DNA of 64,000 nucleotides from an uncultured Candidatus Saccharibacteria bacterium (GCA_964428615.1 CAYRXZ010000002.1:968-64967); one strand, 5' to 3'. Counted from the first letter of the stretch, positions 1,743-51,976 are shown. Translations and numbers: made by a program. The notes: a model not told the origin generated them from the sequence alone.

Positions 1743-1906
1743 AATATTAGACCGTCTAATCCTGTGGGCTCTAGAGAATTTTTTTTAGATCACGGAATAT
1801 CTGGCTCCGGCTGGAGATCTCCTCGGAAAAATTCTTAATCTCTTTTTTATAAAAGAGTTTCAATTCTCGTCCGAGAATCGCCCACAGAATTAGGCGGTTT
1901 TATAAT
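1743..1906. repeat. Imperfect ~27-bp terminal inverted repeats (22/27 matches) flanking a ~110-bp core with internal palindromes (GGAGATCTCC; CTCTTTT-TTAT-AAAAGAG); MITE-like or structured intergenic element
   Basis: Left arm aatattagaccgtctaatcctgtgggc (1743-1769) against the reverse complement of the right arm gcccacagaattaggcggttttataat (1880-1906). Lies in the ruvB-pilB intergenic region. Confidence 0.3.
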
Positions 1907-3630
1907 TCAATTAACCCAGTTGTATTTTCTACCTCCTCAAAGGTGGTTATCCCGGAAATTACTTTTAAAATTCCGTCCTCCTGCATTAATACTATTCCTT
2001 TTTTTTCAGCTAGTTCTTTAATACCAATTTCTGTTGGGTTTTTGCCTATTAATAATTCCATATCGCCATCAACCAAAAGAAGTTCAAATACTCCCACTCT
2101 ACCTTTATATCCTAAATTATTACACTTATTACATCCTTTTTGTTCAAAAATTTTAATGTTTGATTTATAAAAATCTTTATCTATTCTATCTGGCAATTTT
2201 TCAATGAAATTTTTTATCTTGCCCTCTAATTCAACGTCTATTTTCTTTTCGACCTTACAATTTTCGCAAAGCTTTCTTACTAAACGCTGAGCAATTATCA
2301 TATTAACCGCCGGCGCAAGCACGGAAGTTTTAACCCCTAAATCCAACATTCTCGGAATCGCGCCCGATGCGTCATTTGTATGAAGAGTTGAAAATACCAA
2401 GTGGCCGGTTAATGAAGCATGAATTGCTATTTCGGCAGTTTCTAAATCCCTAATTTCACCAATTAAAATCATATCCGGGTCCTGCCTTAATAAAGAACGT
2501 AAACCACTTGAAAAGTTATACCCGGCCTCAGGGTCAACTTGTGTCTGCTCTATGCCCTCAAGATGATATTCTATTGGGTCTTCAATGGTGATTGTTTTTG
2601 ACTCTGATTTTTGAGTGTGTTGTAAAAAAGCGTAAAGAGTTGTTGTTTTTCCGGAACCGGTAGGACCGGTATTCAAAATCATTCCATTGGGCTTTGAAAG
2701 TTCTCTTTCAACTATTTCCAAATCATCTTTTCTAAACCCCAATTGGGGCAGTTCCACATGAATTGCATCTGGATTTAAAATTCTTAAAACCACAGTCTCT
2801 CCAAACTCTGAAGGATTGATTGATGTTCTTATTTCTATTTCTTTATCGGATAAAGAAATAGTAAAGCGGCCATCTTGAGCTTGATTGTCTACATTAATTT
2901 TAAGACCAGAAAGAAGTTTTATACGAGAAACAATACTAATATGAATTTTTGACTTTAATCCATTAAAAATATCATATAATAAGCCGTCTATTCTTAAACG
3001 AATTTTTGCTGAATCTTCTGATGGTTCAAAGTGAATATCTGACGCCCTCATAGAAAGAGCTCCAGCTAAAATAGCTTCCAAAATTTCACCAGTGTACCTA
3101 ATATCTTCATTCATCTTTCCTATTGAGTTATTTATACTCTGCAAGGAAACAAGTTCTTTTTTGAGCGCTACTAGTTTTTCTTCTTTAATTTTAATCCTAC
3201 CAGTAATGTTTTCCCCTTTTTGAGAGATAAATCTATAAAAATTCCAGATGTTATTCAACCCACTCAATGAAGTTGTGAAAACAGAAACAAAGTACCCTTG
3301 GGATTTTAACTTTTCGATAATTTTTTTTACTTCAAAGTCTTCTGAAGAAAAAACCGCCAAGGCAATTTTTTTTTCTTTAAATTCAACCGCTGCGAGTTTG
3401 GCGTTTTTTGCTTCTTCTTCGGGTATTAAAGAAAGCGCTTCTATATTTATTGATGTGGCTGATAGGTCAACATAAGGAAAGCCTGTTTTTTCCGCCCGAC
3501 GCTTAGCATCTCTTTCTTCGGCCTCACGTCTCATATTCGCCAATTTATCTTTTATTTTTAAAAAAGAGTTTTTGGGATTCATTTGTATAAATAATAAGGG
3601 CAAAATAATAAATAGTAAAGCTGAAACCAC
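1900..3630 (-). CDS. Type II secretion / type IV pilus assembly ATPase (GspE/PilB family)
   Basis: Walker A LNTGPTGSGKTTTLYAFL, Asp/His boxes, C-terminal tetracysteine zinc motif (CENC...CNKC). The first ~16 residues are hydrophobic, so the true start is probably an internal Met (MNPKN.. or MRREAEE..). Confidence 0.88.
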   Translation of the reverse strand: MVSALLFIILPLLFIQMNPKNSFLKIKDKLANMRREAEERDAKRRAEKTGFPYVDLSATSINIEALSLIPEEEAKNAKLAAVEFKEKKIALAVFSSEDFEVKKIIEKLKSQGYFVSVFTTSLSGLNNIWNFYRFISQKGENITGRIKIKEEKLVALKKELVSLQSINNSIGKMNEDIRYTGEILEAILAGALSMRASDIHFEPSEDSAKIRLRIDGLLYDIFNGLKSKIHISIVSRIKLLSGLKINVDNQAQDGRFTISLSDKEIEIRTSINPSEFGETVVLRILNPDAIHVELPQLGFRKDDLEIVERELSKPNGMILNTGPTGSGKTTTLYAFLQHTQKSESKTITIEDPIEYHLEGIEQTQVDPEAGYNFSSGLRSLLRQDPDMILIGEIRDLETAEIAIHASLTGHLVFSTLHTNDASGAIPRMLDLGVKTSVLAPAVNMIIAQRLVRKLCENCKVEKKIDVELEGKIKNFIEKLPDRIDKDFYKSNIKIFEQKGCNKCNNLGYKGRVGVFELLLVDGDMELLIGKNPTEIGIKELAEKKGIVLMQEDGILKVISGITTFEEVENTTGLIEL

Positions 3631-7714: not shown

Positions 7715-8833
7715 TTAATTAGCATTTATAGGCATTAAAATATAAAAACAAGATATATCTGTTGGTGATTTTATTAAAACTGGTTTATTTCCACCATTAA
7801 ATCCAAAAAATATATTATCTGAATTAATAGATTTAATTCCATCTATAATAAATCTCCAATTAAAAATTATTTCAACGCCCGCGCCCTTTATTTTCGCCGG
7901 TATTAAATAATTATTCTCTCCAAGTGATTGATTTGAAGAAAAAACTTTAATATTTTTTGAATTATCTTTTATAGAAATTTTTATCTCATTTAATTTATCC
8001 GTAAAAGAGCTTACTAATTTTAACGCTGAAATTAATTGCTCTTTTTCAAATATAGTTTCAGTTTCAAAAGATTGAGGAATAATTATTTGATAATCAGGAA
8101 ATTCACCACTAATTAAACGTGAAATAATTTCACAATTTTCATTTTTAAATAAAACCTGATTAGAATCAAAATAAATTTTTATTTCCCCATCTTCATTTTT
8201 AAAATTTCTTATTATTTCGTGTATTGTTTTTAAGGGAATTATAATTTTAAAATTATCTTCTATTTCTGTTTTAAATTGGGTATTTATTATTGTTTTTTCA
8301 GCAAGTCTAAAACTATCAGTAACAACAATTTTAAAATAATTATTTTGGAAATCAAAAAGTGCACCACTTAGTTCTGGTTTTATTTCTGAAATTTGACCAG
8401 CTCCAACGACAGACATAAAAGCGTTTTTAATTAAAGATGATGATATTTTAATAAATAAATCATTTTTTATTTGAGGAATTATTGGAAAATCATCTTTTTT
8501 TCCAATATGAATCTTGGCTTGATAATTATCTGTTTTTATAAATAAATAACCACCTTCAGTTTCAAGATTTATTCTTTCACTTTGAATATTATTTATAATT
8601 AAATTAAAAATATTAAATGGAATAGTAAAAATTCCACCTTCAACAACCTTACACGGAATAAATGCCGTAACTGCTATTTCAAGATTTGTGGCTAATAATT
8701 TTATTTTATTATCAATTGTTTCTAATAAAAAATTTTTTAAAACTGGTAAAGCGGCGGAATTATTATCCATTCCAACTTTTCCAATTATATCCAATCCTGT
8801 TTTAAGATTATTTTTTAAAATTATTATTTTCAT
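7715..8833 (-). CDS. dnaN: DNA polymerase III beta sliding clamp DnaN
   Basis: 372 aa, three-domain size. Lies immediately downstream of dnaA in the same orientation. N-terminus MKIIILKNNL.. is clamp-like. Sequence is divergent, so the call rests mostly on synteny and size. Confidence 0.75.
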   Translation of the reverse strand: MKIIILKNNLKTGLDIIGKVGMDNNSAALPVLKNFLLETIDNKIKLLATNLEIAVTAFIPCKVVEGGIFTIPFNIFNLIINNIQSERINLETEGGYLFIKTDNYQAKIHIGKKDDFPIIPQIKNDLFIKISSSLIKNAFMSVVGAGQISEIKPELSGALFDFQNNYFKIVVTDSFRLAEKTIINTQFKTEIEDNFKIIIPLKTIHEIIRNFKNEDGEIKIYFDSNQVLFKNENCEIISRLISGEFPDYQIIIPQSFETETIFEKEQLISALKLVSSFTDKLNEIKISIKDNSKNIKVFSSNQSLGENNYLIPAKIKGAGVEIIFNWRFIIDGIKSINSDNIFFGFNGGNKPVLIKSPTDISCFYILMPINAN

Positions 8834-9012
8834 ATATTTTTATAATAACTCCTATTATAATATATTAATAAATAATAGTAGTAGTTAGTGTGGTTAATTA
8901 TGTTAATTAGTTTTTAATATAATGTATTTATTGATTAAATTTTAAGTTTATTTTTTTATAACAACTTAATTAAAACTTAATTAATAGTGGAAAACTAAAA
9001 ATAATATTTTTA
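8834..9012. promoter_or_regulatory. dnaA-dnaN intergenic AT-rich region with DnaA-box-like motifs (TGTGGTTAA, AGTGGAAAA); candidate DNA-unwinding element and second half of a bipartite oriC
   Basis: About 85-90% AT over 180 bp. 9-mers one or two mismatches from the TGTGGATAA consensus. Repeated cttaatta motifs. Position is analogous to the Bacillus-type oriC between dnaA and dnaN. Confidence 0.4.
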
Positions 9013-10371
9013 TTAATTTTTATAAATATTATCTTTAATTAAAACAATTCTTTGTCCGAGATTTTGATTTTTATTTATTTCTCGAGATATTTTCTCACAC
9101 GCGTATATAGCGGTTGTATGGTCCCTTTTCCCTAATTTATCCCCAATATCATTATAAGACATATTTATTAATTCTCTTAATAAAAAAGCGGCAATTTGTC
9201 TTGGTTCAACAACACTTTTTTTCCTCGACCTATTTATTAAATCAGTTATTGTTATTTCATAAAAATCAGCTACAGCTTTGATAATTTGATTTCCGGTAAT
9301 ATTTTTTGCCGATTGTTGGATTATATTATTTATTATTTCTTCAACGGTTTTTGTGTCTAAATCAATATTTTTTACTTCTTGATAAAATAATATTTTATTA
9401 AGAATACCTTCTAATTCTCTTATATTTCTTTGAATTTTTGTAGAAATAAGAGAACAAACCTCATCTTTAAGTGAAACATTTTTTTCTTGGAGTTTATTTT
9501 TAATAATAGCAAGGCGCATTTCATAATCTGGATAAGTAATATCAACAATCATCCCGCCCTCAAACCGTGATCTAAGGCGCGCTTCAAGTGTTGGGATGGC
9601 CGCTGGGGGCCTATCAGAAGAAAGAATAATTTGTTTATTATTTTCATAAAGAACATTAAATGTATGAAAAAATTCTTCTTCACTTCTTTCTTTTCCACCA
9701 ATAAATTGTATATCATCTATTATTAAAACATCAATATTACGATATTTTTCTTTAATATCATCCATTCTTTTATTTCTTATTGCCCAAACAACATCGTTAA
9801 CAAATTTTTCCGACGGGACATATTTAATTTTAATTTTATTTTTATATTTTTCTTTAATTTCATTACCCATTGCTTGAATAAGATGAGTTTTGCCAAGTCC
9901 GGTCCCACCATAAATAAAAAATGGATTATATTTTTTCCCAACATTTTTAATTATCGCCGTTGTAGCGGCGTAAGCGAGTTCATTAGAAGAACCAACAACA
10001 AAGGAACTCATTGTATATCGTGGGTGAAGATTGGTTTCTAGATCTATTTTAAATTCCGGTAATGATTCTTGGTGAGGAAAATATTTTTTTTCTTCAATTT
10101 TAATTTCAACCCGTCCCTTATTTTCAAAAACAACAATATATTCAACCTTTTTAATAGTGTCGTCAAATTCTCTAAGCGCCTCCAATATTATTTTATTATA
10201 TTTATTTTCAACCCACTCTTTTGCAAAATTATTATTAAAACCAATAATAACCCTCCCATCATCCTCTTTTTTAATAAGACGACTATTTTTAAGCCATGTA
10301 AGAAAATTTGGTCTGGAAATTTGGAGTTCCAATTCAGCTAAAACAGATTGCCATGTTTTATTAAGATCCAT
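9013..10371 (-). CDS. dnaA: Chromosomal replication initiator DnaA
   Basis: AAA+ Walker A GGTGLGKTHLIQAMGNE, Walker B LIIDDIQF, sensor motifs, C-terminal DnaA-box-binding helix-turn-helix (..YNDIGDKLGKRDHTTAIYA..). Confidence 0.95.
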   Translation of the reverse strand: MDLNKTWQSVLAELELQISRPNFLTWLKNSRLIKKEDDGRVIIGFNNNFAKEWVENKYNKIILEALREFDDTIKKVEYIVVFENKGRVEIKIEEKKYFPHQESLPEFKIDLETNLHPRYTMSSFVVGSSNELAYAATTAIIKNVGKKYNPFFIYGGTGLGKTHLIQAMGNEIKEKYKNKIKIKYVPSEKFVNDVVWAIRNKRMDDIKEKYRNIDVLIIDDIQFIGGKERSEEEFFHTFNVLYENNKQIILSSDRPPAAIPTLEARLRSRFEGGMIVDITYPDYEMRLAIIKNKLQEKNVSLKDEVCSLISTKIQRNIRELEGILNKILFYQEVKNIDLDTKTVEEIINNIIQQSAKNITGNQIIKAVADFYEITITDLINRSRKKSVVEPRQIAAFLLRELINMSYNDIGDKLGKRDHTTAIYACEKISREINKNQNLGQRIVLIKDNIYKN

Positions 10372-37957: not shown

Positions 37958-38485
37958 ATGGTTATTGTTTTTACCGGCAATGGAAAAGGAAAAACAACAG
38001 CTGCTTTAGGTCAAGCGATAAGAGCATTAGGCAGAGAGAAGAAAGTCTTAATAATTCAATTTATTAAAAATTGTGAAAGCGGTGAGCATTTATTTTTCAA
38101 GAAAATTCAAACGATTGATTTTTCTGAGAAAATCAAAATAATTCCGGCCGGGAAGGGATTTGTGAAGATTTTAGGCGATAAACTTCCATTAAGCGAACAT
38201 AAAAAAGCCGCTAATAATGCCTTAAAATTGGCTAAAAAGGAGATTTTAAGCGGAAAATGGGATTTAGTTGTTTTGGATGAAATTAATGTGGCAACGAACA
38301 TTAAATTAATCAAAGAGAAAGACGTTTTTAAAATTTTATCGTGTAAGGTTGTGCCGGTGGTAATTTTAACGGGTCGTGGCGCGCCAAAAAGTTTTATTAA
38401 AATAGCGGATTTGGTTACGGAAATGAAAGAAATAAAACACCCTTTTAAAAAAGGCGCGGCAGCTCAAATCGGAGTTGAATTTTAA
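37958..38485 (+). CDS. Corrinoid (cob(I)yrinic acid a,c-diamide) adenosyltransferase, CobA/CobO/BtuR family
   Basis: VIVFTGNGKGKTTAALG..QF.K....GE...LVVLDE...ILTGRGAP..ADLVTEM..IKHPF..G.AAQIGVEF closely parallels BtuR. Confidence 0.82.
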   Translation: MVIVFTGNGKGKTTAALGQAIRALGREKKVLIIQFIKNCESGEHLFFKKIQTIDFSEKIKIIPAGKGFVKILGDKLPLSEHKKAANNALKLAKKEILSGKWDLVVLDEINVATNIKLIKEKDVFKILSCKVVPVVILTGRGAPKSFIKIADLVTEMKEIKHPFKKGAAAQIGVEF

Positions 38486-39935
38486 AATGCGAATTCATGA
38501 TGTCGCTTTTTATACTGCCGGGTTTTTCATTTTAGGAATCTTTGGCTCTAGCTTAAAAATAAGTTTGCCGACTATTCTATTTATGACCGTTTTTATCGCG
38601 GTTCTATTTTTATTTACAGGATTTTATAAAAATTCAAAAAAATTATTTTGGCTCGCGGCGATTTCTTTGATGATTATCATCGGCGCTTTTTATTTTAATT
38701 TCCGAGATTTTAACAGAGAGGAAAATGTTAAAATCGTTTTTAACGAGAAAACTGATTTTCAGGGATTGGTGATGGGGGATCCTAGACGGGGCGAATGGCA
38801 GGATTTAAAAATAAAATTAATGCCACCTTATAGCGGAAATATTGCGGTTAAGCTATCACTTTATCCGAGTTTTAAATATGGCGATTTGATAAATTTTTCC
38901 GGTAAGATTAAAAAACCAGCAATGGATGAATACGCCGATTATCTTAAAAATGAAAATATTTCCGGGACTGCTGCTTTTTTAGGAACAGAATTAGTTGCCG
39001 AAAATCAAAACTCAAAAATAAAATCAATTCTTTTTGGTTTAAAAAATAAAACAATCGTCAATCTCCAAAAAGTTTTGCCGGCTGAAAGCGCGGCATTTAT
39101 GTCGGGAATTATTCTGGGGGAGCGGGCGGAATTTTCAAAAGAATTAAAAACCGCGATGTCTAATTCTGGCACGACTCATTTAGTAGCGCTTTCAGGCTAT
39201 AATATTTCAGTTATTGGTATAGCGATCGGCGTAATATTTGGTTATTTTTTAAATAGGCGATGGACTTTCTTTTTAAGTGTTTTAGTTATTGTTATTTTTG
39301 TTTTAATGACTGGAGCTGAAGCTTCAGTGGTTAGGGCAGCTATTATGGGCTCAATTTTGCTTCTAGCGAAACAAGTAGGTAGAATTTATAGTTTTAGAAA
39401 CGCTATTGCTTTAGCGGCGTTTTTTATGATATTGGAGAATCCGAGAATTTTAAATTTTGATATCGGTTTTCAATTATCATTTGTTGCGCTTTTAGGGCTT
39501 GTATATTTAGTGCCGGCACTCGAAAAAATTTTTAATTTAAATAAAGAAAATGATTTTTGGGGGGTAAAAGAGAATTTTTTGAATACTTTTTCGGCGCAAC
39601 TTGCCGTAGCGCCAATGCTTATTTTTTATTTCGGGAATTTTTCGCTTATTGCGGTTATTAGTAATATTTTAATTTTAACTTTTATACCGATTACAATGGC
39701 TTTGGGATTTATTTTGGCTGGGATAGGATTTATTTCTTATTATTTTTCTTTGGTTTTCGGTTGGTTTGTAAATTTATTTTTGGCGTACGAGCTTTTTATA
39801 ATAAAATTTTTCGGCGGACTAAATATTTTAAAAATAAATTTCTCCGGCGCGGTGCTGTTTGTTGTTTATTATATTATATTAATAGGATTAATAGTTTGGG
39901 CAAATAAAAAACATAATAGTGGGCCATCGAGATAG
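38475..39935 (+). CDS. comEC: DNA internalisation competence protein ComEC/Rec2 (OB-fold plus competence domain, no C-terminal metallo-beta-lactamase domain)
   Basis: Multi-TM. Competence-domain motif TAMSNSGTTHLVALSGYNIS. 486 aa, so shorter than the ~750 aa full form. Confidence 0.78.
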   Translation: MNFKMRIHDVAFYTAGFFILGIFGSSLKISLPTILFMTVFIAVLFLFTGFYKNSKKLFWLAAISLMIIIGAFYFNFRDFNREENVKIVFNEKTDFQGLVMGDPRRGEWQDLKIKLMPPYSGNIAVKLSLYPSFKYGDLINFSGKIKKPAMDEYADYLKNENISGTAAFLGTELVAENQNSKIKSILFGLKNKTIVNLQKVLPAESAAFMSGIILGERAEFSKELKTAMSNSGTTHLVALSGYNISVIGIAIGVIFGYFLNRRWTFFLSVLVIVIFVLMTGAEASVVRAAIMGSILLLAKQVGRIYSFRNAIALAAFFMILENPRILNFDIGFQLSFVALLGLVYLVPALEKIFNLNKENDFWGVKENFLNTFSAQLAVAPMLIFYFGNFSLIAVISNILILTFIPITMALGFILAGIGFISYYFSLVFGWFVNLFLAYELFIIKFFGGLNILKINFSGAVLFVVYYIILIGLIVWANKKHNSGPSR

Positions 39936-42940: not shown

Positions 42941-43576
42941 ATGGTCATCACTTTTTATGGCGAAGGCTGTTTTAAAATTCAAAGCGGCGAGCTTTCTGTT
43001 TTGATAGATCCTTTTGACGCTCAAACAGGGCTGACGCCGCCTCGTTTTAAGGCGGATATTGTTCTAAAAACGATTACATCAACTTCTTTTTTCGAGAAAA
43101 AAGAAGTTCCACTTTCTTCGGAAATTATCGGTCAGGGAGAGTATAATATTAAGGGCGCTGATATTTCGGGATTCCAATTAATAAAAGAATCGTCGAAAAT
43201 TTTTTTTAAAACAGTGTATGTCTTAAGAATTGAGGATATTAATTTATGTTTTTTAGGGCATATTTCTGAGGTTCCCGAGCCGACGGTTTTAGAACGTTTA
43301 GGAGAACCGGATATTATTTTTATTCCGGCCGGAGGTTCGCCATTTATAGATTTAAAGTCAGCGGTGAAAATTGCCAAACAGTTCCAGCCCAAAATGGTAA
43401 TACCTTCCTTCTTTAAAGTCCCCTCACTAAAAAGAAAAGCAGGAGATATTAAAGATTTTTTGGAAGAGTTTAACGGAGCTAAAGAAAAAATTAATGAAGC
43501 TGTTGAAAAATTAACAATAAAAAAGAAAGATTTGGCAGGAATAAAAAAAACGCAAATTACTGTATTAAAAATATGA
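42941..43576 (+). CDS. Metallo-beta-lactamase-fold hydrolase (UPF0173-like), metal-binding motif apparently degenerate
   Basis: ITFYGEGCFKIQSGELSVLIDPF resembles the MBL-fold family. The canonical HxHxDH motif is not evident. Confidence 0.45.
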   Translation: MVITFYGEGCFKIQSGELSVLIDPFDAQTGLTPPRFKADIVLKTITSTSFFEKKEVPLSSEIIGQGEYNIKGADISGFQLIKESSKIFFKTVYVLRIEDINLCFLGHISEVPEPTVLERLGEPDIIFIPAGGSPFIDLKSAVKIAKQFQPKMVIPSFFKVPSLKRKAGDIKDFLEEFNGAKEKINEAVEKLTIKKKDLAGIKKTQITVLKI

Positions 43577-43863
43577 TGTGGGTTAAAAGATTTATTGGAC
43601 GAATTCAAAATTCTGATGAACAAATAAAAAGGCGGTGGACGATTTTATTTAGTGTTACGGCGATTATGGTAGTTACTGCATTTTGGATTCTTTTTATGGT
43701 TCGTCAGATATCTTTTGTTGCGCCGGAAATTACCAATATAGATGAGCCGGGATTTTGGCAGATTTTTAAAAATGGAGCGTTAATGATTTTTAATTCAATT
43801 GGTGAAAATATTAAAAACATTTTTTTATTAATAACGGAGAAAAATACGATCGTAATAGAATAG
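43573..43863 (+). CDS. Hypothetical single-pass membrane protein
   Basis: ORF with ATGA overlap to the upstream gene. One TM helix (WTILFSVTAIMVVTAFWILFMV). Confidence 0.3.
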   Translation: MMWVKRFIGRIQNSDEQIKRRWTILFSVTAIMVVTAFWILFMVRQISFVAPEITNIDEPGFWQIFKNGALMIFNSIGENIKNIFLLITEKNTIVIE

Positions 43864-43877
43864 ACATGTCATAGAGA

Positions 43878-46328
43878 ATGGATATAAAAAATCAAAAAAT
43901 TGAAAAACAGGAAATAACAGATGAGCTTCGCGAATGTTATCTTGATTATGCGATGTCGGTTATAGTTTCGCGTGCTTTGCCTGACTTAAGAGACGGATTA
44001 AAACCAGTTCAAAGAAGAATTTTATGGACAATGTGGGAAGAAGGATTGGGATATTCGGCAAAATTCAGAAAATCGGCAAATGTTACAGGAACTGTTTTGG
44101 CGCGCTATCATCCGCATGGCGATATGGCAGTTTATGACGCTCTTGCCAGAATGGCGCAAGATTTTTCTTTAAGATATCCCCTTATTAAAGGACAGGGGAA
44201 CTGGGGCAGTATTGATGGTGATGCACCCGCCGCCCAACGTTACACCGAGGCCAAACTCACAAAAATTTCCGAGGAACTTTTATTTGATATTGAAAAAGAA
44301 ACCGTAGATTGGCAGCAGAATTATGATTCAACAAGAGAAGAACCAAAAGTCTTACCTTCAAAACTCCCAAACCTTTTACTTAATGGTTCATTTGGTATTG
44401 CCGTGGGAATGTCGACAAATATTCCTCCACATAATCTTTCTGAAATAGTAGACGCTTCAATTTATTTGGCAGATCACCCAAAAAGCGGGAATGAAGAACT
44501 TACGCAATTTATCCAAGGACCGGATTTTCCGACTGGTGGAATTATTTACGATAAAAAAGCGATTATTGAAGCATATGCCTCGGGTAAGGGAGCAATAACT
44601 TGCAGAGCTAAAACCGAAATAGAAGAAAGAAAGGCGGGGCAATTCAATATTGTAGTTACAGAAATTCCTTATCAAGTGAACAAGTCGGAACTTATAATTA
44701 AAATTGCCGAATTAGTTACAGATAAAAGAATAGAAGGAGTTCGCGATTTGCGCGATGAGAGCGACAGAGATGGTATGAGAATAGTGGTTGAACTTAAAAA
44801 TGACGCCAACCCTCAGAAAATTTTAAATCAGCTTTTCAAGCACACCGATCTACAGAAAAACTTTAATCTTAATATGATTGCGCTAGTAAGTGGAATTCAG
44901 CCGCAGCTTTTGTCTCTAAAGGAGGTTTTGGCTGGCCACTTGGAACATCGTAGGTTAGTGGTTGAAAAACGCGCTAAATATGAACTTAAAAAAGCTAAAG
45001 AACGCGAGCATATTCTTGAAGGTTTGGCAAAAGCACTTTCAAAAATAGATGAGATAATTTCAACAATTAAAAAATCAAAAGACCGTTCGGACGCTCATGA
45101 GAATTTGGTAAAGAAATTTAAATTTACCGATATCCAAGCGACTGCCATTTTGGAAATGAGACTCCAAAACTTGGCGGCTTTAGAAAGAAACAAAATAGAA
45201 GCTGAGCTTGAAGAGAAAAGAAAAATAATACGTGAACTTGAAATTTTACTTAAGAGTCCGGAAAAAATTCTTAAGGTTATCAAAGAAGAAATGCTTGAGC
45301 TTAAGACTATTTATGGTGATAGCCGTCGGACAAGGCTCGTTTCTTCCGGTTTAACAGAGTTTAAGGAAGAGGATTTAATTCCACAAGAAGAAGTTATGAT
45401 TACACTTTCGGGCAGTGGCTACATCAAAAGAGTCCCGCCTTCGACAATTAAAGTTCAGCATCGCGGCGGCAAAGGGGTTGTTGGCTCCGATGTCAGCGAG
45501 GAAGATTTTATAAGTCATTTTATTTCAGCGGATACTCATGATAATATTTTATTCTTTACAAATAGGGGCAGAGCTTTTCAAACGAAGGTTTATGAAATTC
45601 CAGCCGGTTCACGCACAAGCAAGGGCAAGGTAATTCAAAACTTTTTAGAAATTCCGACAGATGAAACAATAAGCGCCATCATTAGTTATTCGGATAAAAA
45701 AAATTCAGGTGGCGGAAAGTTTTTGGTGATGGTGACAAAAAAGGGAATAATTAAGAAAACCGGTTTGGAAAACTTTGAAAATATTCGCCGGAACGGAATA
45801 GCGGCGATTAACTTACAAAAAGGAGATGAACTTAAATGGGTTGAATTATCTTCGGGTAGGGACGAAATTATTTTGATTACTGCTAATGGTAAGGCGATAA
45901 GATTTAAGGAATCTCAATTAAGGTCGATGGGTAGAACAGCCGCCGGCGTGAAAGCTATTAAGATAAAAGGTAATGACTTTATTGCCGGGCTTGATATAAT
46001 AAATAGAGGTGATAAAACAAAAACAATAAGTGAAAAATTATTAATAATTACCGAAAATGGTTTCGCCAAACAGACACCATTAAAAGAATATAAAGTTCAA
46101 AGCCGTGGAGGACAAGGAATTAAAACGGCTAAAATTACCGAAAAAACAGGTAAAATAGTTACAGCGAAAATAATAGAAGGAGAAGAAGAACTTATGGCGC
46201 TTTCAAATAAGGGGCAGATTATAAAAACAAAAATTTCGGATATTAGAACGGCCGGCCGCGCTACTTCTGGAGTAAAAGTAATGAGGTTGAATAGCGGAGA
46301 TAAGGTGGCGGGAGCGGCAATATTGTAA
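43878..46328 (+). CDS. gyrA: DNA gyrase subunit A
   Basis: Active-site Tyr region (..AMRYTEAKL-like: QRYTEAKL), GyrA box QRRGGKG, C-terminal beta-pinwheel repeats. 816 aa. Confidence 0.95.
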
Positions 46329-46330
46329 AT

Positions 46331-47635
46331 ATGAATTTTTCTAAAACTCAGATAATAATTTTAGGAATAATAGGATCAATAGTTTTGTTTTTCACGCTGG
46401 TTTTTTTGGGTGTTATCCCGGGCCTAAAAACTTCAGGCTTGGGTAGTTTTACATTTGGGCCAGGTGGAGGAGATCAAGTAAAAATTAATTTTTGGGGTAT
46501 AGCTGAGGCTGATAGTCAAAATTCAGTACAGAAATTAATTGAAGAATATTCAAAAACTAATGGGAATATCCAAATAGCTTATCGTCACTTTGATGATGCG
46601 GAAACCTATGAAAAAACCTTATTGAATTCTTTAGCAATAGGGCAGGGGCCCGACATTTTTATGTTCCATAGCAGCTGGCTGATAAAACATTATGACAAAG
46701 CCGCGTCAGCACCTGAACCTTTAAATTTAAATTATATTCAACAAATATTTCCTGATGTGGTCCGGTATGATTTTTCGATAGAAAATAACGTTTACGCTTT
46801 GCCGCTTTATATAGACACATTAGCTATTATTTATAATAAAGATATTTTTAATGCTAAATCAATCGCTTTGGTGCCGAAAACATGGGCGGAATTTGAAAGT
46901 TTAGTTCCACAACTTCGGGAATTAAATATTTTAAATCAAGTAGTTAGGCCGGCTGCGGCAATAGGCGGTTCAAATAAGAGCATTAATACGGCTTCGGATA
47001 TATTAAATCTTTTGATTCTTCAATCAGGCAGTCAAATAGTTGATAAGCAAGGGCAAGTGACTTTAGGGCAAGATGCATTATCGGCTTTCAATTTTTATAT
47101 TCAATTTGCTGACCCTTCGGGCAGCTATTATACGTGGAATGATAATATCGGCAATTCGATAGAGCTTTTTAGTAGGGGAGATTTAGCGACAATTTTTGAT
47201 TATCAGTCGTCTCTTGCGTCAATAAAGGCAAGAAATCCTTATTTAAATATAGGAATTAGCGCTATGCCGCAATCAAATCTTGCGCAGCCAATTAATTATT
47301 CTGATTATTGGGGACTAGCAGTTTCAAGACAGAGCAAAAATCAAATTTTAGGATGGAATTTTATTATTGCTGTAACAGCAGACCCAAAAATGTCGGAAAT
47401 TTATCTTAAAGCAGCTGGAAAGCCACCGGCATTACGTTCTCTTATAGAAAAATATAAAATAGATGCCAATTTGAGTATTTTTGCCAAACAGGCGCTTACG
47501 GCAAAGTCTTGGCTCAAGTCAGACGGTAAAGCCATTAATCAAATTTTCTCAAATATGATAGGATATGTTTTAAATGGGAAATTATCTTCAGATAAGGCGA
47601 TGAATCAGGCCAAAAACGAAATAAACGCTTTATGA
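46331..47635 (+). CDS. Membrane-anchored extracellular solute-binding protein (ABC-type, family-1-like); no permease or ATPase genes adjacent
   Basis: N-terminal TM anchor, then a MalE-like fold pattern (KINFWGIAE.., GPDIFMF..). 434 aa. Confidence 0.65.
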   Translation: MNFSKTQIIILGIIGSIVLFFTLVFLGVIPGLKTSGLGSFTFGPGGGDQVKINFWGIAEADSQNSVQKLIEEYSKTNGNIQIAYRHFDDAETYEKTLLNSLAIGQGPDIFMFHSSWLIKHYDKAASAPEPLNLNYIQQIFPDVVRYDFSIENNVYALPLYIDTLAIIYNKDIFNAKSIALVPKTWAEFESLVPQLRELNILNQVVRPAAAIGGSNKSINTASDILNLLILQSGSQIVDKQGQVTLGQDALSAFNFYIQFADPSGSYYTWNDNIGNSIELFSRGDLATIFDYQSSLASIKARNPYLNIGISAMPQSNLAQPINYSDYWGLAVSRQSKNQILGWNFIIAVTADPKMSEIYLKAAGKPPALRSLIEKYKIDANLSIFAKQALTAKSWLKSDGKAINQIFSNMIGYVLNGKLSSDKAMNQAKNEINAL

Positions 47636-48048
47636 TTAGTAAAATGAAAAATTCAATTTTATTTTTTGCTTTGTATTTCGCGTTTTTTGCCGCTCGCGCC
47701 AATGCCGCTGGCGCTGGCCTGGTGCCTTGCGGAGGAGCCGAGCAAAACCCATGTACTTGGTGTCATTTCAGTCAGTTGGCGATAAATATTATAGACTTTA
47801 TGATGTATTTGGTTTTTCCTCTGGCGGCGGTAATGATTGTTATTGGTGGTATATTTATTATGACTTCCGGAGGTTCAAGCGCCAGGTTTAGCAAAGGGAA
47901 AGAAATGATTACTGGAGCGGTTATCGGAATTTTAATTGCCTTGCTTTCTTGGATAATTATTGATACAATAATTCAAACAATCGCGGTAGGTTGGGACGGT
48001 TTAAACTTAACTCCGTGGAATAAAATAAATTTAGGCGAAAAATGTTAA
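47632..48048 (+). CDS. TrbC/VirB2-like small secreted two-helix protein, paralogue 1 (signal peptide; Cys-rich CGGAEQNPCTWCH segment)
   Basis: Signal peptide MKNSILFFALYFAFFAARANA, then two hydrophobic helices separated by a short Lys-rich loop. Paralogous to the next four genes. Confidence 0.5.
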   Translation: MISKMKNSILFFALYFAFFAARANAAGAGLVPCGGAEQNPCTWCHFSQLAINIIDFMMYLVFPLAAVMIVIGGIFIMTSGGSSARFSKGKEMITGAVIGILIALLSWIIIDTIIQTIAVGWDGLNLTPWNKINLGEKC

Positions 48049-48051
48049 TTT

Positions 48052-48390
48052 ATGGCTAAATTTTCAAAAAAATTATTAGGCGTCGCTTTAGCGGCAGGTA
48101 ATGATTTAAAAAGCGCTGCTCAGCAGTTAGCGCAGGGTTCGCCAATCAGCAGTCCCGAAAAAATATTCTCAATTTTACAAAAAGTAGTCCAATATACCTA
48201 TACGGTTTTTTTCATTGTCGCAGTTTTATTTATTTTAATCGCCGCTTTTAATTTTTTAAATGCAAAAGGGGACCCGATTAAAATTAATAGCGCCAAAAGC
48301 CAAATTCTTTGGGCAATAGTGGCGATTGTTGTTGCTTTAGTATCGCTTGGAGCAGCTCAAATAATAAATAGTTTTATTGAGGGCGCCTAA
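48052..48390 (+). CDS. TrbC/VirB2-like small two-helix protein, paralogue 2
   Basis: Core ..ILQKVVQYTYTVFFIVAVLFILIAAFNFLNAKGDPIKINSAKSQILWAIVAIVVALVSLG shared with its neighbours. Confidence 0.5.
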   Translation: MAKFSKKLLGVALAAGNDLKSAAQQLAQGSPISSPEKIFSILQKVVQYTYTVFFIVAVLFILIAAFNFLNAKGDPIKINSAKSQILWAIVAIVVALVSLGAAQIINSFIEGA

Positions 48391-48398
48391 GAATAAAA

Positions 48399-48842
48399 AT
48401 GAGGAAAGCACTTATATTTTCAACTATTTTAATTTCTTTTTTGCCCTTTTTTGCTTTGGCGCAATTTACGCCGGGCTCAATTCCGGAACCCAGCGATTAC
48501 GGCATAAAAGGAGCAGAAAATATACCCACAAATAGCGATGATTTATTAGATATTTTAAGGTCAGTGGTTAAATTTGTTTATATAGCCTTTTTTATCATTG
48601 CTGTTTTGTTTATAGTGATTGCTGCGTTTAATTATTTGACTGGAGCTGATGCTCCAGATAAGATTAAAGCTGCTCATACACAGTTAGTTTATTCAATTAT
48701 CGCTATTGGCATAGCCTTACTAGCGTTGACATTACAGGTAGTTGTTGGAAGTTTCATTAAAAACACCGGCGGTTCAACTGTGCAAGAAAATCAAATTCAG
48801 TCCGGCTATCAATTAAATGATGGGTCTACGATGTATCGATAA
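48399..48842 (+). CDS. TrbC/VirB2-like small secreted two-helix protein, paralogue 3
   Basis: Signal peptide ..FFALA/QF. Core DILRSVVKFVYIAFFIIAVLFIVIAAFNYLTGADAPDKIKAAHTQLVYSIIAIGIALLALT. Confidence 0.5.
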   Translation: MRKALIFSTILISFLPFFALAQFTPGSIPEPSDYGIKGAENIPTNSDDLLDILRSVVKFVYIAFFIIAVLFIVIAAFNYLTGADAPDKIKAAHTQLVYSIIAIGIALLALTLQVVVGSFIKNTGGSTVQENQIQSGYQLNDGSTMYR

Positions 48843-48899
48843 ATTAAAAATTACATAATATAGACATAAAAGGTCGATTATTGAAAAATTAATTAAATT

Positions 48900-49280
48900 A
48901 TGAATTTATCAAAATCAAAGTTTATAGCGGCAGTTATTGCGGTTTCGATTATTTTGCCGCTTGCGAGTGTTGTTTATGCTCAACCGCAAACAGGTCTTAC
49001 TTTGCCTGGGGCAAATACCAATATTACAACTGTCTCTGGCATGGTTGACATTCTTCGCGGAATTGTTAGGTGGGTTTATGTTATATTCTTTATAATCGCT
49101 GTGTTATTTATTATTTTCGCGGCGTTCACCTATTTAACTGCGGGCGGAGACCCGGAAAAAACAAACAAAGCAAAGAATCAACTGATTTATGCAGCTGTTG
49201 CTATCGCCGTAGCTTTATTAGCGGTTGGGTTTCAGTCTATCGTAAGTAATTTCTTAGCTGCTCCGACAGCAGGAGTGTAA
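48900..49280 (+). CDS. TrbC/VirB2-like small secreted two-helix protein, paralogue 4
   Basis: Signal peptide ..SVVYA/QP. Core DILRGIVRWVYVIFFIIAVLFIIFAAFTYLTAGGDPEKTNKAKNQLIYAAVAIAVALLAVG. Confidence 0.5.
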   Translation: MNLSKSKFIAAVIAVSIILPLASVVYAQPQTGLTLPGANTNITTVSGMVDILRGIVRWVYVIFFIIAVLFIIFAAFTYLTAGGDPEKTNKAKNQLIYAAVAIAVALLAVGFQSIVSNFLAAPTAGV

Positions 49281-49298
49281 TTAATTATTGAATTTAAA

Positions 49299-49333
49299 CA
49301 TACGAGTCCCGTTTATACGGCGGGGCTCGTATG
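49299..49333 (+). terminator. Stable hairpin after pilin-like paralogue 4 (catacgagtcccg...cggggctcgtatg); no clear U-tract
   Basis: 13-bp stem with one G-U pair. May act as a partial terminator or processing site inside the array. Confidence 0.35.
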
Positions 49334-49357
49334 AAAATCGATTAGGATATTTTAATA

Positions 49358-49702
49358 ATGATAAAGTCTTTTCTAGAAAATATTTTTTTGAGTTTTAATA
49401 ATGTAGCGCATGGTGCTCCTGGTATAGGCGGTTTTCCTGGCGGTGGAACACTTCCAAATCCACTTGGAGAAGGCAGCACTTTTATTACAGTAATAAATAA
49501 TATTTTAAATTATTTAATATACATCAGCGCGCCGATTTTAGCGATAATGATTTTAGTCGGCGGTTTTCAGATTTTAACCGCTAAAGGCGAACCCGGAAAG
49601 ATAGTTTCTGGAAAACAGACGATAACATACGCCATTATAGGATTTCTTATAATTTTGGTTTCAAAAGGTGTGGCACTTATTCTTTTGAAAATAATGCAAT
49701 AA
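49358..49702 (+). CDS. TrbC/VirB2-like small two-helix protein, paralogue 5 (Gly/Pro-rich N-terminal segment)
   Basis: Core ..ILNYLIYISAPILAIMILVGGFQILTAKGEPGKIVSGKQTITYAIIGFLIILVS. The most divergent member. Confidence 0.45.
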   Translation: MIKSFLENIFLSFNNVAHGAPGIGGFPGGGTLPNPLGEGSTFITVINNILNYLIYISAPILAIMILVGGFQILTAKGEPGKIVSGKQTITYAIIGFLIILVSKGVALILLKIMQ

Positions 49703-49760
49703 AAAAAAATGACCCCGACAGCGAATGAATAAATAATTCACTGTCGGGGTTTTTGTTTTA
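49701..49760. terminator. Bidirectional intrinsic terminator (A9, ccccgacag...ctgtcgggg, T-rich) between the pilin-like array and the GC-rich island
   Basis: 9-bp GC stem flanked by A and T runs. Convergent genes on either side. Confidence 0.6.
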
Positions 49761-50174
49761 TCGCACTCGTACGATTTCTACGAGTGTCGTCGTTTTTACG
49801 CCTTGTGCGTTTATTAGGCGTAATCTCCCGGCGGGTGCTTCGCCGGTCCAACTTTCCCATCCGGCGGGCATATCGTAGATGATACGCTTACCGTCGAGTT
49901 GGTTTGCTATTGCTCTGTATGGAGCATTCCCACGCAAGCGGTGCAGTGTACCTGGACCGCCATAGATAGTGAGTACTTCATTGCATTTGCCCTTTTCGTC
50001 GCAGGGCGGGAGACAGAATGTTTGGGGTTGGAGTTGTGCTACCCGCGTTTCAGTCGGCGGCTTACTCTTGTCATCTTTTGTCACTATTACTATTGTTATC
50101 GCAATAATAACAACCGAAACAATTAGCAACGCCGCGCTTTTACCGCTAAGTATTTTTACTTTATTAACTGCCAT
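49758..50174 (-). CDS. Membrane-anchored hypothetical protein (N-terminal TM, CxxxC..C segment), GC-rich, co-oriented with the SPFH gene
   Basis: About 50-55% GC. TM helix AALLIVSVVIIAITIVIV. Start overlaps the SPFH stop by 11 nt. Possible NfeD-like partner, but no clear match. Confidence 0.45.
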   Translation of the reverse strand: MAVNKVKILSGKSAALLIVSVVIIAITIVIVTKDDKSKPPTETRVAQLQPQTFCLPPCDEKGKCNEVLTIYGGPGTLHRLRGNAPYRAIANQLDGKRIIYDMPAGWESWTGEAPAGRLRLINAQGVKTTTLVEIVRVR

Positions 50175-51243
50175 TTTTTCTCTCCTTCCAATTTTTTAAC
50201 AGATTAGACAGCAGATCTAAACCCTCAAGAGAAATTATTTTTCTGTCAATCGTGGCCTTGCCGGTCATTGCCGTTTCCGCTAAATTAACCGCCAGTTGCT
50301 CAGGGAGTTTCATATTCACATACTCGTTAATCATCTTTACTTTTTGCTCTTGTCTTTTTTGCGCTGCTTCCATTTCAGCCCCAGCTTGCCTCACGCTTTC
50401 CAGCGCTTTTTTGGTTGCTTCTGAAAAATCGACATCTGCAAGTCTGAAGATAGCGATATCAATCCCATAGAGTTTCTCTATGGATGAGAGTTTTTCTTTC
50501 AATTCCGCCTCCTGCTCAAGGAGAAAAGAAGCTCTTGTGATGTTTTGTTCATAAAAAGACAGTTCATCAAGAACAATTTCTTTTTCTCCTTTCTCTTCTT
50601 TTAACACTATCGGCAACTGCCATCTCGACTTTTCTATTTTTTCCGCTATCTCATTATATTCTTCGCCTTTAACCGATTTTTCTATGTCTACCAAATACTC
50701 TTTCAGGCACTCTTCATCCATTTCATATTTTTCTACTTTTCCCTTGTTATCCCTTACTGGATTTACCCAATGATGAGGAGGTTTTTCCAGTCTTAAAACA
50801 CAGTTAATGAAAATTTCCAATGCTCTTCTTGACCGAATAAAGTTATCGCCTTCTTTAATACCGGCGATTTTCCCCAATTCGCTCTTCACAGCATCGGCCA
50901 TTCCATCAACAATTGTTTTTTCCTGCATCTCGATAAAAACATCAAGATTATCGGGCCGCCACTGAATCGAGCCGGCCGTCTTAATTTCAAGCCGATCCAT
51001 AGAAAAAACATCGAAAGAAAGTGATTTTGTTTGTAATTCTCTAGAAAAAAGCACTACTTTGTCTATGAAAGGCGCAATCGTATTTAGCCCTTCCCTGAGA
51101 ATCCTCACCTTTCCATTTCTTTTAATCCGCTCCTTAAATCGCGTTACTATCCCGAAATATACTGTCGGGATAATAACAATAGCATTAAGCGCTATCACAA
51201 CGGCTATTACAATCAATCCTATCAAGATTATCCATCCCATCAC
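50164..51243 (-). CDS. SPFH/band-7 (stomatin/prohibitin/flotillin-like) membrane protein with long C-terminal coiled coil
   Basis: N-terminal TM, then an SPFH pattern (PTVYFGIVTRFKER...GLNTIAPFIDKVVLFSRELQT..FSMDRLEIKTAGSIQWR). Strong Shine-Dalgarno ggaaggagg. Elevated GC. Confidence 0.7.
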   Translation of the reverse strand: MMGWIILIGLIVIAVVIALNAIVIIPTVYFGIVTRFKERIKRNGKVRILREGLNTIAPFIDKVVLFSRELQTKSLSFDVFSMDRLEIKTAGSIQWRPDNLDVFIEMQEKTIVDGMADAVKSELGKIAGIKEGDNFIRSRRALEIFINCVLRLEKPPHHWVNPVRDNKGKVEKYEMDEECLKEYLVDIEKSVKGEEYNEIAEKIEKSRWQLPIVLKEEKGEKEIVLDELSFYEQNITRASFLLEQEAELKEKLSSIEKLYGIDIAIFRLADVDFSEATKKALESVRQAGAEMEAAQKRQEQKVKMINEYVNMKLPEQLAVNLAETAMTGKATIDRKIISLEGLDLLSNLLKNWKERKNGS

Positions 51244-51522: not shown

Positions 51523-51900
51523 TTGTCTATAAGATTAACTCATGCGAAATCAAAGACAGTTAAAGATCTAGATATCCCAAACAATTATTTTGCAGATTTT
51601 TTAAGGGGCTGCATTGACGGAGATGGTTCTATTGGCGCGTTTAAGCATCCCGAAAGTAAACATCCTCAATTGCGAATAAGATTATATTCCGCAAGCGTAC
51701 CATTTTTACAATGGATTAAGAAAGAAGTTTTGTATAATACAAAAATAAAAACCGGCTGGATTGAAGAAAAAGAAGGTATTAATGTATTAGCTTATGCAAA
51801 AGAGGACTCTATTAAATTATTAAATTTTGTTTATTATAAAAACGTTGAATATTATTTAAAACGTAAATATAATATTGCGAAAGCATTTTTGCGGGTATAG
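51523..51900 (+). CDS. Free-standing single-motif LAGLIDADG-family homing-endonuclease-like protein (TTG start; 3' end overlaps tRNA-Leu by ~10 nt)
   Basis: FADFLRGCIDGDGSIGAF matches the LAGLIDADG signature at an I-CreI-like position. 125 aa, so short. Confidence 0.6.
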   Translation: MSIRLTHAKSKTVKDLDIPNNYFADFLRGCIDGDGSIGAFKHPESKHPQLRIRLYSASVPFLQWIKKEVLYNTKIKTGWIEEKEGINVLAYAKEDSIKLLNFVYYKNVEYYLKRKYNIAKAFLRV

Positions 51901-51972
51901 CCAAATTGGTAAAGGCGCATGGCTTAGAACCATGTGAGGAAACTCTTGGAGGTTCGAGTCCTCCTACCCGCA
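51891..51972 (+). tRNA. tRNA-Leu (anticodon TAG), type II with long variable arm
   Basis: Acceptor GCGGGTA/TACCCGC. Anticodon stem CATGG/CCATG with loop CTTAGAA. Variable arm tgaggaaactcttggag. T-arm GGTTCGAGTCC. Confidence 0.8.
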
Positions 51973-51976
51973 CAAT

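Follow-up and report, generated by a model that had tools for sequence, protein, structure and literature searches.

A tandem array of divergent VirB2/TrbC-superfamily pilin-like genes in a gyrA-linked locus of Patescibacteria

Five neighbouring genes encode pilin-like proteins

We analyzed a 64,000-nucleotide stretch of DNA (GCA_964428615.1 CAYRXZ010000002.1:968-64967), hereafter the window, and found that five consecutive genes (47632-49702) encode pilin-like proteins of the VirB2/TrbC superfamily, assigned to the Pfam family T4SS_pilin (PF18895). The genes were named W1 to W5 (array copies 1 to 5, in gene order), and the binding protein encoded 5′ of W1 was named SBP1. Tandem divergent VirB2-like arrays in Patescibacteria have already been published, and this locus is an ordinary further example of them; our analysis adds a core operon apart from virB4, a kit of three paralogue types, purifying selection and a covalent fusion of pilin units in a relative. 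We consider it fairly probable that the products form a heteromeric pilus or conduit, associated with a type IV secretion system (T4SS) encoded elsewhere.

The listing of open reading frames (ORFs) gave five plus-strand genes at exactly the positions proposed in an earlier note on this DNA, with products of 112-147 aa (Table 1). The alignment of the five proteins revealed the common build described there: a leader, a variable segment, a hydrophobic helix 1, a Lys-rich loop (GDPxKxxKAK) and a hydrophobic helix 2. The note's description of a Cys-rich ectodomain in one copy and Gly/Pro-rich ones in others also agrees with the sequences (four Cys in copy 1; Gly/Pro-rich N-terminal segments in copies 3-5). 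In contrast, its consensus core, FFIIAVLFI..AAF.YLTA.GDP, holds for copies 2-4 only, since copies 1 and 5 have homologous but distinct cores (PLAAVMIVIGGIFIMTSGG and PILAIMILVGGFQILTAKGEP, respectively). Pairwise identity within the array is 22-47%, and no BLAST alignment was obtained between W1 and W2.

In a Pfam search run for each paralogue, five of five scored above the gathering cut-off of PF18895 (26.6 bits), covering 62-66 of the 71 profile positions, and L001 has the same assignment for these genes in its precomputed annotation. Since all five neighbours exceed the cut-off, a chance match is ruled out. A threshold of E<=1e-3 gives 59,287 cluster representatives for this large family, and every one of the 175 homologues of W4, which come from Wolfebacteria, Paceibacterota and other Patescibacteria, carries PF18895. 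The array also falls within the published definition of pilin arrays, that is, at least two VirB2-like genes (PF18895/PF04956) in tandem or one gene apart, with low identity among them (Quinonero-Coronel et al. 2025, PMC12102498).

Best-hit typing sorted the paralogues into three ancient types, A (W1-like), B (W5-like) and C (W2-W4-like), which were compared by hhalign with eight annotated plasmid VirB2/TrbC proteins (alignment A3), bearing in mind that hydrophobic composition may inflate the scores. Type A aligned in register through both helices (Prob 80.8%, E=1.3e-5, 65 columns), and type B gave a Prob of 40.9% and E=2.8e-4, the matches of these two types spanning 65-77 columns. The match of type C was not significant (E=0.11), and the mixed alignment A2 gave E=0.008 with a Prob of 5%. 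With the TrbC profile (PF04956), W5 scored under the cut-off of 27.9 bits (E=1.5e-4) and W1-W4 were not reported. The scores of W2-W5 with NF045849 (pilin-like conjugal transfer protein) were 24-33 bits against a cut-off of 40, and that of W1 was negligible (10.4). The presence of PF18895 in all five proteins bears out the TrbC/VirB2-like call made in the earlier note, and the alignment of types A and B with genuine VirB2/TrbC proteins is consistent with it.

Table 1. Coordinates of the pilin-like array and of other features in the window
Feature	Coordinates	Strand	Evidence and remarks
gyrA	43878-46328	+	Translation gives the GyrA sequence; conserved 5′ neighbour
SBP1, membrane-anchored carbohydrate-type solute-binding protein	46331-47635	+	Pfam SBP_bac_1 and SBP_bac_8, E~1e-23
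W1, type A pilin	47632-48048	+	138 aa; PF18895 30.8 bits
W2, type C pilin	48052-48390	+	112 aa; PF18895 34.7 bits
W3, type C pilin	48399-48842	+	147 aa; PF18895 35.3 bits
W4, type C pilin	48900-49280	+	126 aa; PF18895 47.0 bits
W5, type B pilin	49358-49702	+	114 aa; PF18895 40.5 bits, PF04956 22.3 bits
Bidirectional intrinsic terminator	49703-49759	.	Hairpin between an A-run and a T-run (inverted repeat I3)
138-aa membrane protein, then SPFH/Band_7 protein	49758-51243	-	Convergent to the array; no family match for the 138-aa protein
Type IV pilus assembly ATPase, PilB/GspE-like	1900-3630	-	E=1e-116
ComEC	38475-39935	+	Pfam scan

By inspection of the sequences, AXA-type cleavage sites were recognized in W1, W3 and W4, which carry canonical signal peptides (..ARANA↓AG, FFALA↓Q and VVYA↓Q, respectively). 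In W1 the signal peptide is followed by an ectodomain with a VPC..PC motif, the two-helix core and a C-terminal tail that ends in Cys; C33 and C41 are conserved among type A orthologues. W3 has an additional C-terminal tail of 35 residues. The AlphaFold2 (AF2) model of W4 showed a leader helix and a helical hairpin (45-79 and 85-120), with a predicted local distance difference test (pLDDT) score of 70 overall and of 80-88 in the core. W5 combines a shortened leader with a Gly-rich ectodomain that includes a conserved NPLG motif, and its core is GGFQILTAKGEPGK. Judging from the positive-inside rule, the Lys-rich loop would be cytoplasmic, which fits the topology of VirB2.

Three ancient paralogue types evolve under purifying selection

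Related loci were identified by a scan of one genome per species (n=60 loci). The nearest relatives are metagenome-assembled genomes (MAGs) of Paceibacterota and Wolfebacteria, the closest being L007, a Paceibacterota MAG with identities of 82% for the pilin and 93% for gyrA. The source genome belongs to Patescibacteria, in the Paceibacteria class, and is related to Wolfebacteria; these neighbours agree with the episymbiont-type genome proposed before. An iterated hidden Markov model identified 2-8 pilin genes, arrayed in the same orientation, in every one of the 60 loci except two.

Each type has its own place and copy number in these arrays. Type A is single-copy, contains Cys and comes first after SBP1 in nearly all loci. 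Type B is also single-copy; most lineages have it in second place, and the clade of the window has it at the end. Type C is present in 1-6 or more copies per lineage. The ectodomain motifs VPC..C (type A) and NPLG (type B) are kept among orthologues. In some lineages, type A proteins bear Cys-rich ectodomains of 100-330 residues, N- or C-terminal to the two-helix core (for example, L039 1396-2760, L043 6323-7600, L053 4177-5433 and L081 9005-9643), W1 being a minimal version of the type. These features make type A a candidate tip, adaptor or adhesin subunit. A gene for a DsbA/thioredoxin-like protein is located next to recO just past the right end of the window (L070 582-1304), and its product may be relevant to the disulfides of the Cys-containing type A pilin.

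The ratios of nonsynonymous to synonymous substitution rates (dN/dS) of the pilins relative to L007 ranged from 0.07 to 0.28, values that are approximate because dS is near saturation. For comparison, the ratio was 0.12-0.14 for SBP1 and a holin-like membrane protein and 0.03 for gyrA; thus, the pilins resemble other envelope proteins of the locus. W4 is the best conserved copy (0.07) and a candidate for the major subunit, and W3 is the fastest-evolving one (0.19), with 53-57% identity to its L007 orthologue. Such values point to purifying selection on the pilin orthologues and suggest a fixed subunit kit rather than antigenic variation. No DNA repeats longer than 23 nt were found in the window array, and therefore recent tandem duplication or gene conversion was ruled out there. 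The antigenically varying family envisaged in the earlier note is not supported, in view of these ancient types, the conserved orthologues and ectodomain motifs, the dN/dS values and the lack of repeats for recombination. Recent duplications do occur in a relative, as four near-identical 106-aa type C genes lie in tandem in L081 (11966-14262), indicating that the copy number of type C is dynamic, though the split into types A, B and C is ancient.

Pilin units are also found fused. P0121 is a 606-aa ORF with seven T4SS_pilin units, a single signal peptide, SF(G/D)IP junctions and 14 predicted transmembrane (TM) helices. It is present on contigs from independent samples (L081 10001-11821 and L082 4068-5888), in an array with gyrA, SBP1, type A and type B. 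As a Rosetta-stone-type fusion, P0121 implies that the array members lie side by side with the same topology. An AF2 model of P0121, used as a proxy of an oligomer, gave a pLDDT of 51 and a predicted template modelling score of 0.32, so that only the seven hairpins are credible and their packing is not. A two-unit fusion was detected in L016 (9121-9831), and at least two pilin units were present in 94 of the 150 best family hits, a ranking by summed score that favours such proteins. Summed repeat scores also brought up P0131 (2608 aa, 28 matched stretches), which was rejected as a pilin because it is a low-complexity, eukaryote-like tandem repeat. We found no mention of pilin fusions in PMC12102498.

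The array is part of a conserved, probably co-transcribed locus with gyrA and SBP1

The array is tightly packed behind two genes of the same strand. Only 2 nt separate gyrA from SBP1, the stop codon of SBP1 overlaps the start codon of W1 (ATGA), and the intergenic gaps within the array are 3, 8, 57 and 77 nt; gyrA and SBP1 are probably in one transcription unit. The array ends at a hairpin with a fold energy of -29.8 kcal/mol (z=-6.5; 0 of 200 shuffles equalled it), with UUUUUGUUUU after the stem, beyond which a convergent minus-strand gene (49758-50174) is located. One compact same-strand unit with a single terminator implies co-expression of the pilins. SBP1 also has weak MalE/GanS-like NCBIfam matches. 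Our Pfam scan covered all non-overlapping window ORFs of at least 90 aa except a 96-aa ORF (43573-43863, no NCBIfam match), and it detected no ABC permease or ATPase near SBP1 among these ORFs, in line with the previous description of an orphan membrane-anchored binding protein in front of the array.

BLAST searches with the flanking proteins of the window revealed the gene order LactB3, hyp96, gyrA, SBP1 and array, often followed by Xer. About 45 of the 60 species-level loci (among L004-L062) have the order gyrA-SBP1-array, the most distant of them with a gyrA only about 60% identical to that of the window. These loci come from MAGs of Wolfebacteria, Jorgensenbacteria, Harrisonbacteria, the Paceibacter type and other Patescibacteria. 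In five further loci (L055, L058-L060 and L062; 49-57% gyrA identity), gyrA adjoins the array without SBP1. A gyrA gene directly precedes the binding protein and pilin array in about 50 of the 60 loci. The same order was seen on long-read contigs of about 0.5 Mb, and a scan of viral contigs found no relatives. This conservation suggests that the array is a core, vertically inherited locus. As a separate observation, the gyrA genes of L005 (3665-6695) and L006 (3968-6690) contain an intein with a LAGLIDADG domain, and the gyrA of the window has none.

In the flanks of the 60 loci, 30 large ORFs were tested with Pfam and most other ORFs of at least 450 aa were assigned by BLAST. The families found were FtsH, PNPase, H+-PPase, aminoacyl-tRNA synthetases, iPGM, ComM, UvrD, RecG, FtsK, DnaE and others unrelated to T4SS. 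Six Pfam-negative flanking ORFs were rejected as VirB4/VirD4 candidates, five having no Walker A motif and the sixth being just 370 aa long; the 16 unassigned flanking ORFs of at least 450 aa also have no Walker A motif. In these 60 loci, the arrays sit in a housekeeping neighbourhood, away from VirB4.

A heteromeric pilus or conduit and the alternatives to it

Our analysis shows the family assignment of these genes, the features of their topology, the layout of the operon, their synteny and orthology, and purifying selection on them. We infer that the fixed three-type kit is used for a heteromeric T4SS-associated pilus or conduit, assembled by a distant T4SS for host contact, a reading in which we have fair confidence. 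The pilin genes would be co-transcribed with gyrA and SBP1, with probable translational coupling, up to the strong terminator. Their products would be inserted into the membrane via Sec or YidC as helical hairpins, with both ends outside and the Lys-rich loop in the cytoplasm, and the canonical signal peptides of W1, W3 and W4 would be removed. Rather than a variation cassette, the set would be a fixed kit passed on vertically, comprising a single Cys-rich type A protein, a single type B protein and several proteins of type C. These subunits would co-assemble, most of them being of type C, and types A and B would have minor or specialised parts. The builder would be a monoderm-type T4SS (VirB4/TrsD/VirB6/PrgI) encoded elsewhere on the chromosome in these lineages, and the resulting filament or conduit may act where the cell touches its host. 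Three relatives with the same gene order, L022 and L028 (Wolfebacteria) and L047 (Jorgensenbacteria), are VirB4-positive (PMC12102498, Table S1). With VirB4 encoded elsewhere in these genomes, the stand-alone repertoire suggested in the earlier note is unsupported.

Several observations weigh against this proposal. To our knowledge, a pilus made of these proteins has been seen in no Patescibacterium. The Pfam scan found no VirB4, VirB6, VirD4, VirB3 or relaxase families in the 64-kb window, as the earlier note had stated for the first three of these proteins, and no T4SS gene was found in the contig beyond it (about 3 kb on the left, with TsaE and UPF0102, and about 2 kb on the right, with the DsbA-like protein), in the dnaA/dnaN region of the window (7715-10371) or less than 10 kb from any of the 60 related arrays. 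The leaders of W2 (48052-48140) and W5 (49358-49420) are unusually short, with an h-region of about 8-9 residues, in the clade of the window; L007 retains a VALAQ site, and the orthologues of other lineages have full signal peptides. Export of these two proteins might proceed by YidC-type N-tail insertion. Thousands of folds match a helical hairpin, and structure comparison was therefore of no use in telling the readings apart. In Paceibacteria, virB4 is often located in the dnaA/dnaN region, and arrays scored as not near VirB4 are listed for this class (PMC12102498, Table S3). In the same table, a lone PF18895 gene is found at a distance of three genes from virB4 in some Wolfebacteria, and this separate gene could be the real T4SS pilin.

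An alternative is an assembly independent of the T4SS, in which the pilin-like proteins would form a hetero-oligomeric membrane ring or short scaffold that works with SBP1 in capturing or taking up host-derived molecules. Such an assembly would not need VirB4 and would bear a loose analogy to the bindosome of archaea. In about 45 of 60 loci the array is linked with gyrA and SBP1 instead of virB4; this linkage, the overlap of SBP1 with W1, the lack of a nearby ABC permease or ATPase and the separate single pilin beside virB4 in some Wolfebacteria all speak for it, and the seven-unit fusion with its 14 predicted TM helices suits a membrane oligomer at least as well as a filament. We nevertheless regard it as unlikely, given that the family appears homologous to VirB2 pilins and that arrays of the same kind in Saccharimonadia and Microgenomatia lie inside the T4SS cluster and are essential. 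Moreover, synteny in tiny, seldom rearranged genomes need not mean shared function, gyrA adjoins the array without SBP1 in five loci, and such a system has no precedent. That the gyrA/SBP1/pilin operon represents a system separate from the VirB4-linked T4SS, in which an assembly of three ancient VirB2-derived subunit types, at times fused into seven-unit polyproteins, acts with the permease-less SBP1 as a nutrient-capture or host-tapping surface structure, appears quite unlikely to us; if true, the VirB2 fold would have acquired a new function there.

Alternating surface variation has been proposed for the VirB2 arrays of Bartonella and Anaplasma. A similar idea has been suggested for Patescibacteria (PMC12102498), and here the paralogues would be interchangeable major pilins, alternately expressed or selected, as an antigenic or host-range repertoire. 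The low identity among paralogues, whose differences lie mostly in the exposed N-terminal segment, the variable number of type C copies, including four near-identical recent duplicates in one relative, and the faster evolution of the pilins compared with their cytoplasmic neighbours are consistent with such a repertoire. However, positional orthologues of each type occur across the class with conserved ectodomain motifs and under purifying selection, the array of the window contains neither repeats nor silent cassettes nor invertible elements, the single compact unit points to co-expression, and seven units fused in one protein point to simultaneous use, which makes this explanation very unlikely. 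Because the kit is fixed and under purifying selection, is covalently fused in a relative and resides in a separate core operon, a heteromeric structure is favoured over antigenic variation. A resemblance to VirB2 through hydrophobicity alone, as in unrelated small membrane peptides (holins, bacteriocin-immunity proteins or type IV pilus pilins), seems extremely improbable. Two-helix hydrophobic proteins do bias profile scores, type C alone gave no significant match to VirB2, and the sequence and fold searches of the PDB retrieved no pilin, the profile search of its sequences yielding only a designed protein (E=0.23). Nonetheless, each of the five proteins scores above a curated Pfam threshold, the alignments of types A and B with VirB2 are in register, and homologous arrays lie inside the T4SS clusters of other classes. 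The five pilins had no match to holin, bacteriocin, immunity or phage families in PHROGs, Pfam or NCBIfam, so the non-pilin outcome that the earlier note had named as its refutation did not appear. Holin or immunity peptides were rejected for this lack of a family match and for the gene context, with gyrA, SBP1 and an SPFH gene around the array. Type IV pilus pilins were rejected since none of the five N-termini has a class III prepilin leader (G↓F/M-T-L-I-E, as in G↓FTLIE), no Pfam family of such pilins was matched, and each protein has two hydrophobic helices.

Other features of the window

With its low GC content (about 35%), the window is part of the core chromosome of a Patescibacteria-like genome. 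It carries dnaA, dnaN, rnpA, yidC, recA, clpB, several aminoacyl-tRNA synthetase genes, tmRNA, smpB and gyrA; rpoB and rpoC, the two largest ORFs, were assigned from size and position. Patescibacteria typically have machinery for type IV pili and competence, to which the PilB/GspE-like ATPase and ComEC (Table 1) belong and which is distinct from T4SS-type pilins. Apart from these two, the Pfam hits in the window ORFs around the array were to housekeeping genes.

Beyond the terminator, the GC content is 0.40, inside the window range of 0.21-0.42, and an SPFH gene is located at the same place, 3′ of the array, in L012, L015, L020, L021, L057 and L081, and not in the closest relative L007. The GC-rich foreign island suggested for this region is supported by neither result, and the SPFH gene is a variable accessory neighbour. 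Farther downstream, a 125-aa ORF (51523-51900, plus strand) adjoins tRNA-Leu (51891-51973), overlapping the start of the tRNA. This ORF appears truncated and has a LAGLIDADG-like motif; its match is to the C-terminal portion of phrog_4645, an endonuclease of phage type (E=2e-15).

Comparison with known systems

The T4SS of ultrasmall, host-dependent Patescibacteria bears on the question of how these bacteria tap their hosts, and its role has been called completely unknown (PMC11665869). A series of six predicted pilins was reported in the T4SS cluster of Southlakia epibionticum ML1 and found to be essential (Wang et al. 2023, Cell, PMC10633639; PMC12857230), so that in the one species tested both the T4SS and its pilin array are essential. 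Nanosynbacter lyticus TM7x carries a "Sec-secreted array" of VirB2-like pilins. In a search of 3,035 genomes with PF04956 and PF18895, VirB2-like pilins were detected in 1,948 VirB4-positive assemblies and were near virB4 in only 1,135, and 441 pilin arrays were described, which comprise 2-11 genes each, have members that are 25% identical on average and in many cases do not adjoin virB4 (PMC12102498). For the locus studied here, the type A candidate for a tip or adaptor and the putative bulk subunit of type C offer concrete targets for structural and proteomic work.

The arrays of S. epibionticum ML1, TM7x and PMC12102498 are the closest known counterparts, since they share with the present one PF18895, the tandem co-oriented arrangement and a conserved structure with divergent sequence. 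As here, the arrays of PMC12102498 belong to monoderm, ultrasmall, host-dependent lineages and have no relaxase context; their maximum identity is 54%. They are most abundant in Microgenomatia and Saccharimonadia, whereas the placement described here is conserved across many Paceibacteria-type lineages. Unlike the array of S. epibionticum, the present one lies neither within nor near a T4SS cluster and follows gyrA and SBP1 in an operon of housekeeping character.

With Agrobacterium VirB2 and RP4 TrbC, the window proteins share the leader, two hydrophobic helices, a short basic loop and an N(I/V)xxF-type motif before helix 1. They differ from these in that they fall under the PF04956 cut-off, their loop is longer and Lys-rich (GDPEKxxKAK), no VirB1, VirB3 or VirB4 gene adjoins them, and they form several fixed paralogue types in a monoderm. 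The Mbov_0395 family of Mycoplasma integrative and conjugative elements (NF045849), from a wall-less or monoderm lineage, has a similar two-helix core of about 80 residues (E=3e-8 for W2 and 5e-8 for W4); those genes are single and lie on mobile elements beside conjugation genes, whereas here the array is chromosomal and core. The VirB2 clusters of Bartonella (Trw) and Anaplasma phagocytophilum also consist of tandemly amplified, diverged VirB2 genes. They are lineage-specific, lie beside the T4SS and are thought to vary the surface or host specificity; in contrast, the array of the window is characterized by an ancient paralogue split, conserved orthologues and purifying selection.

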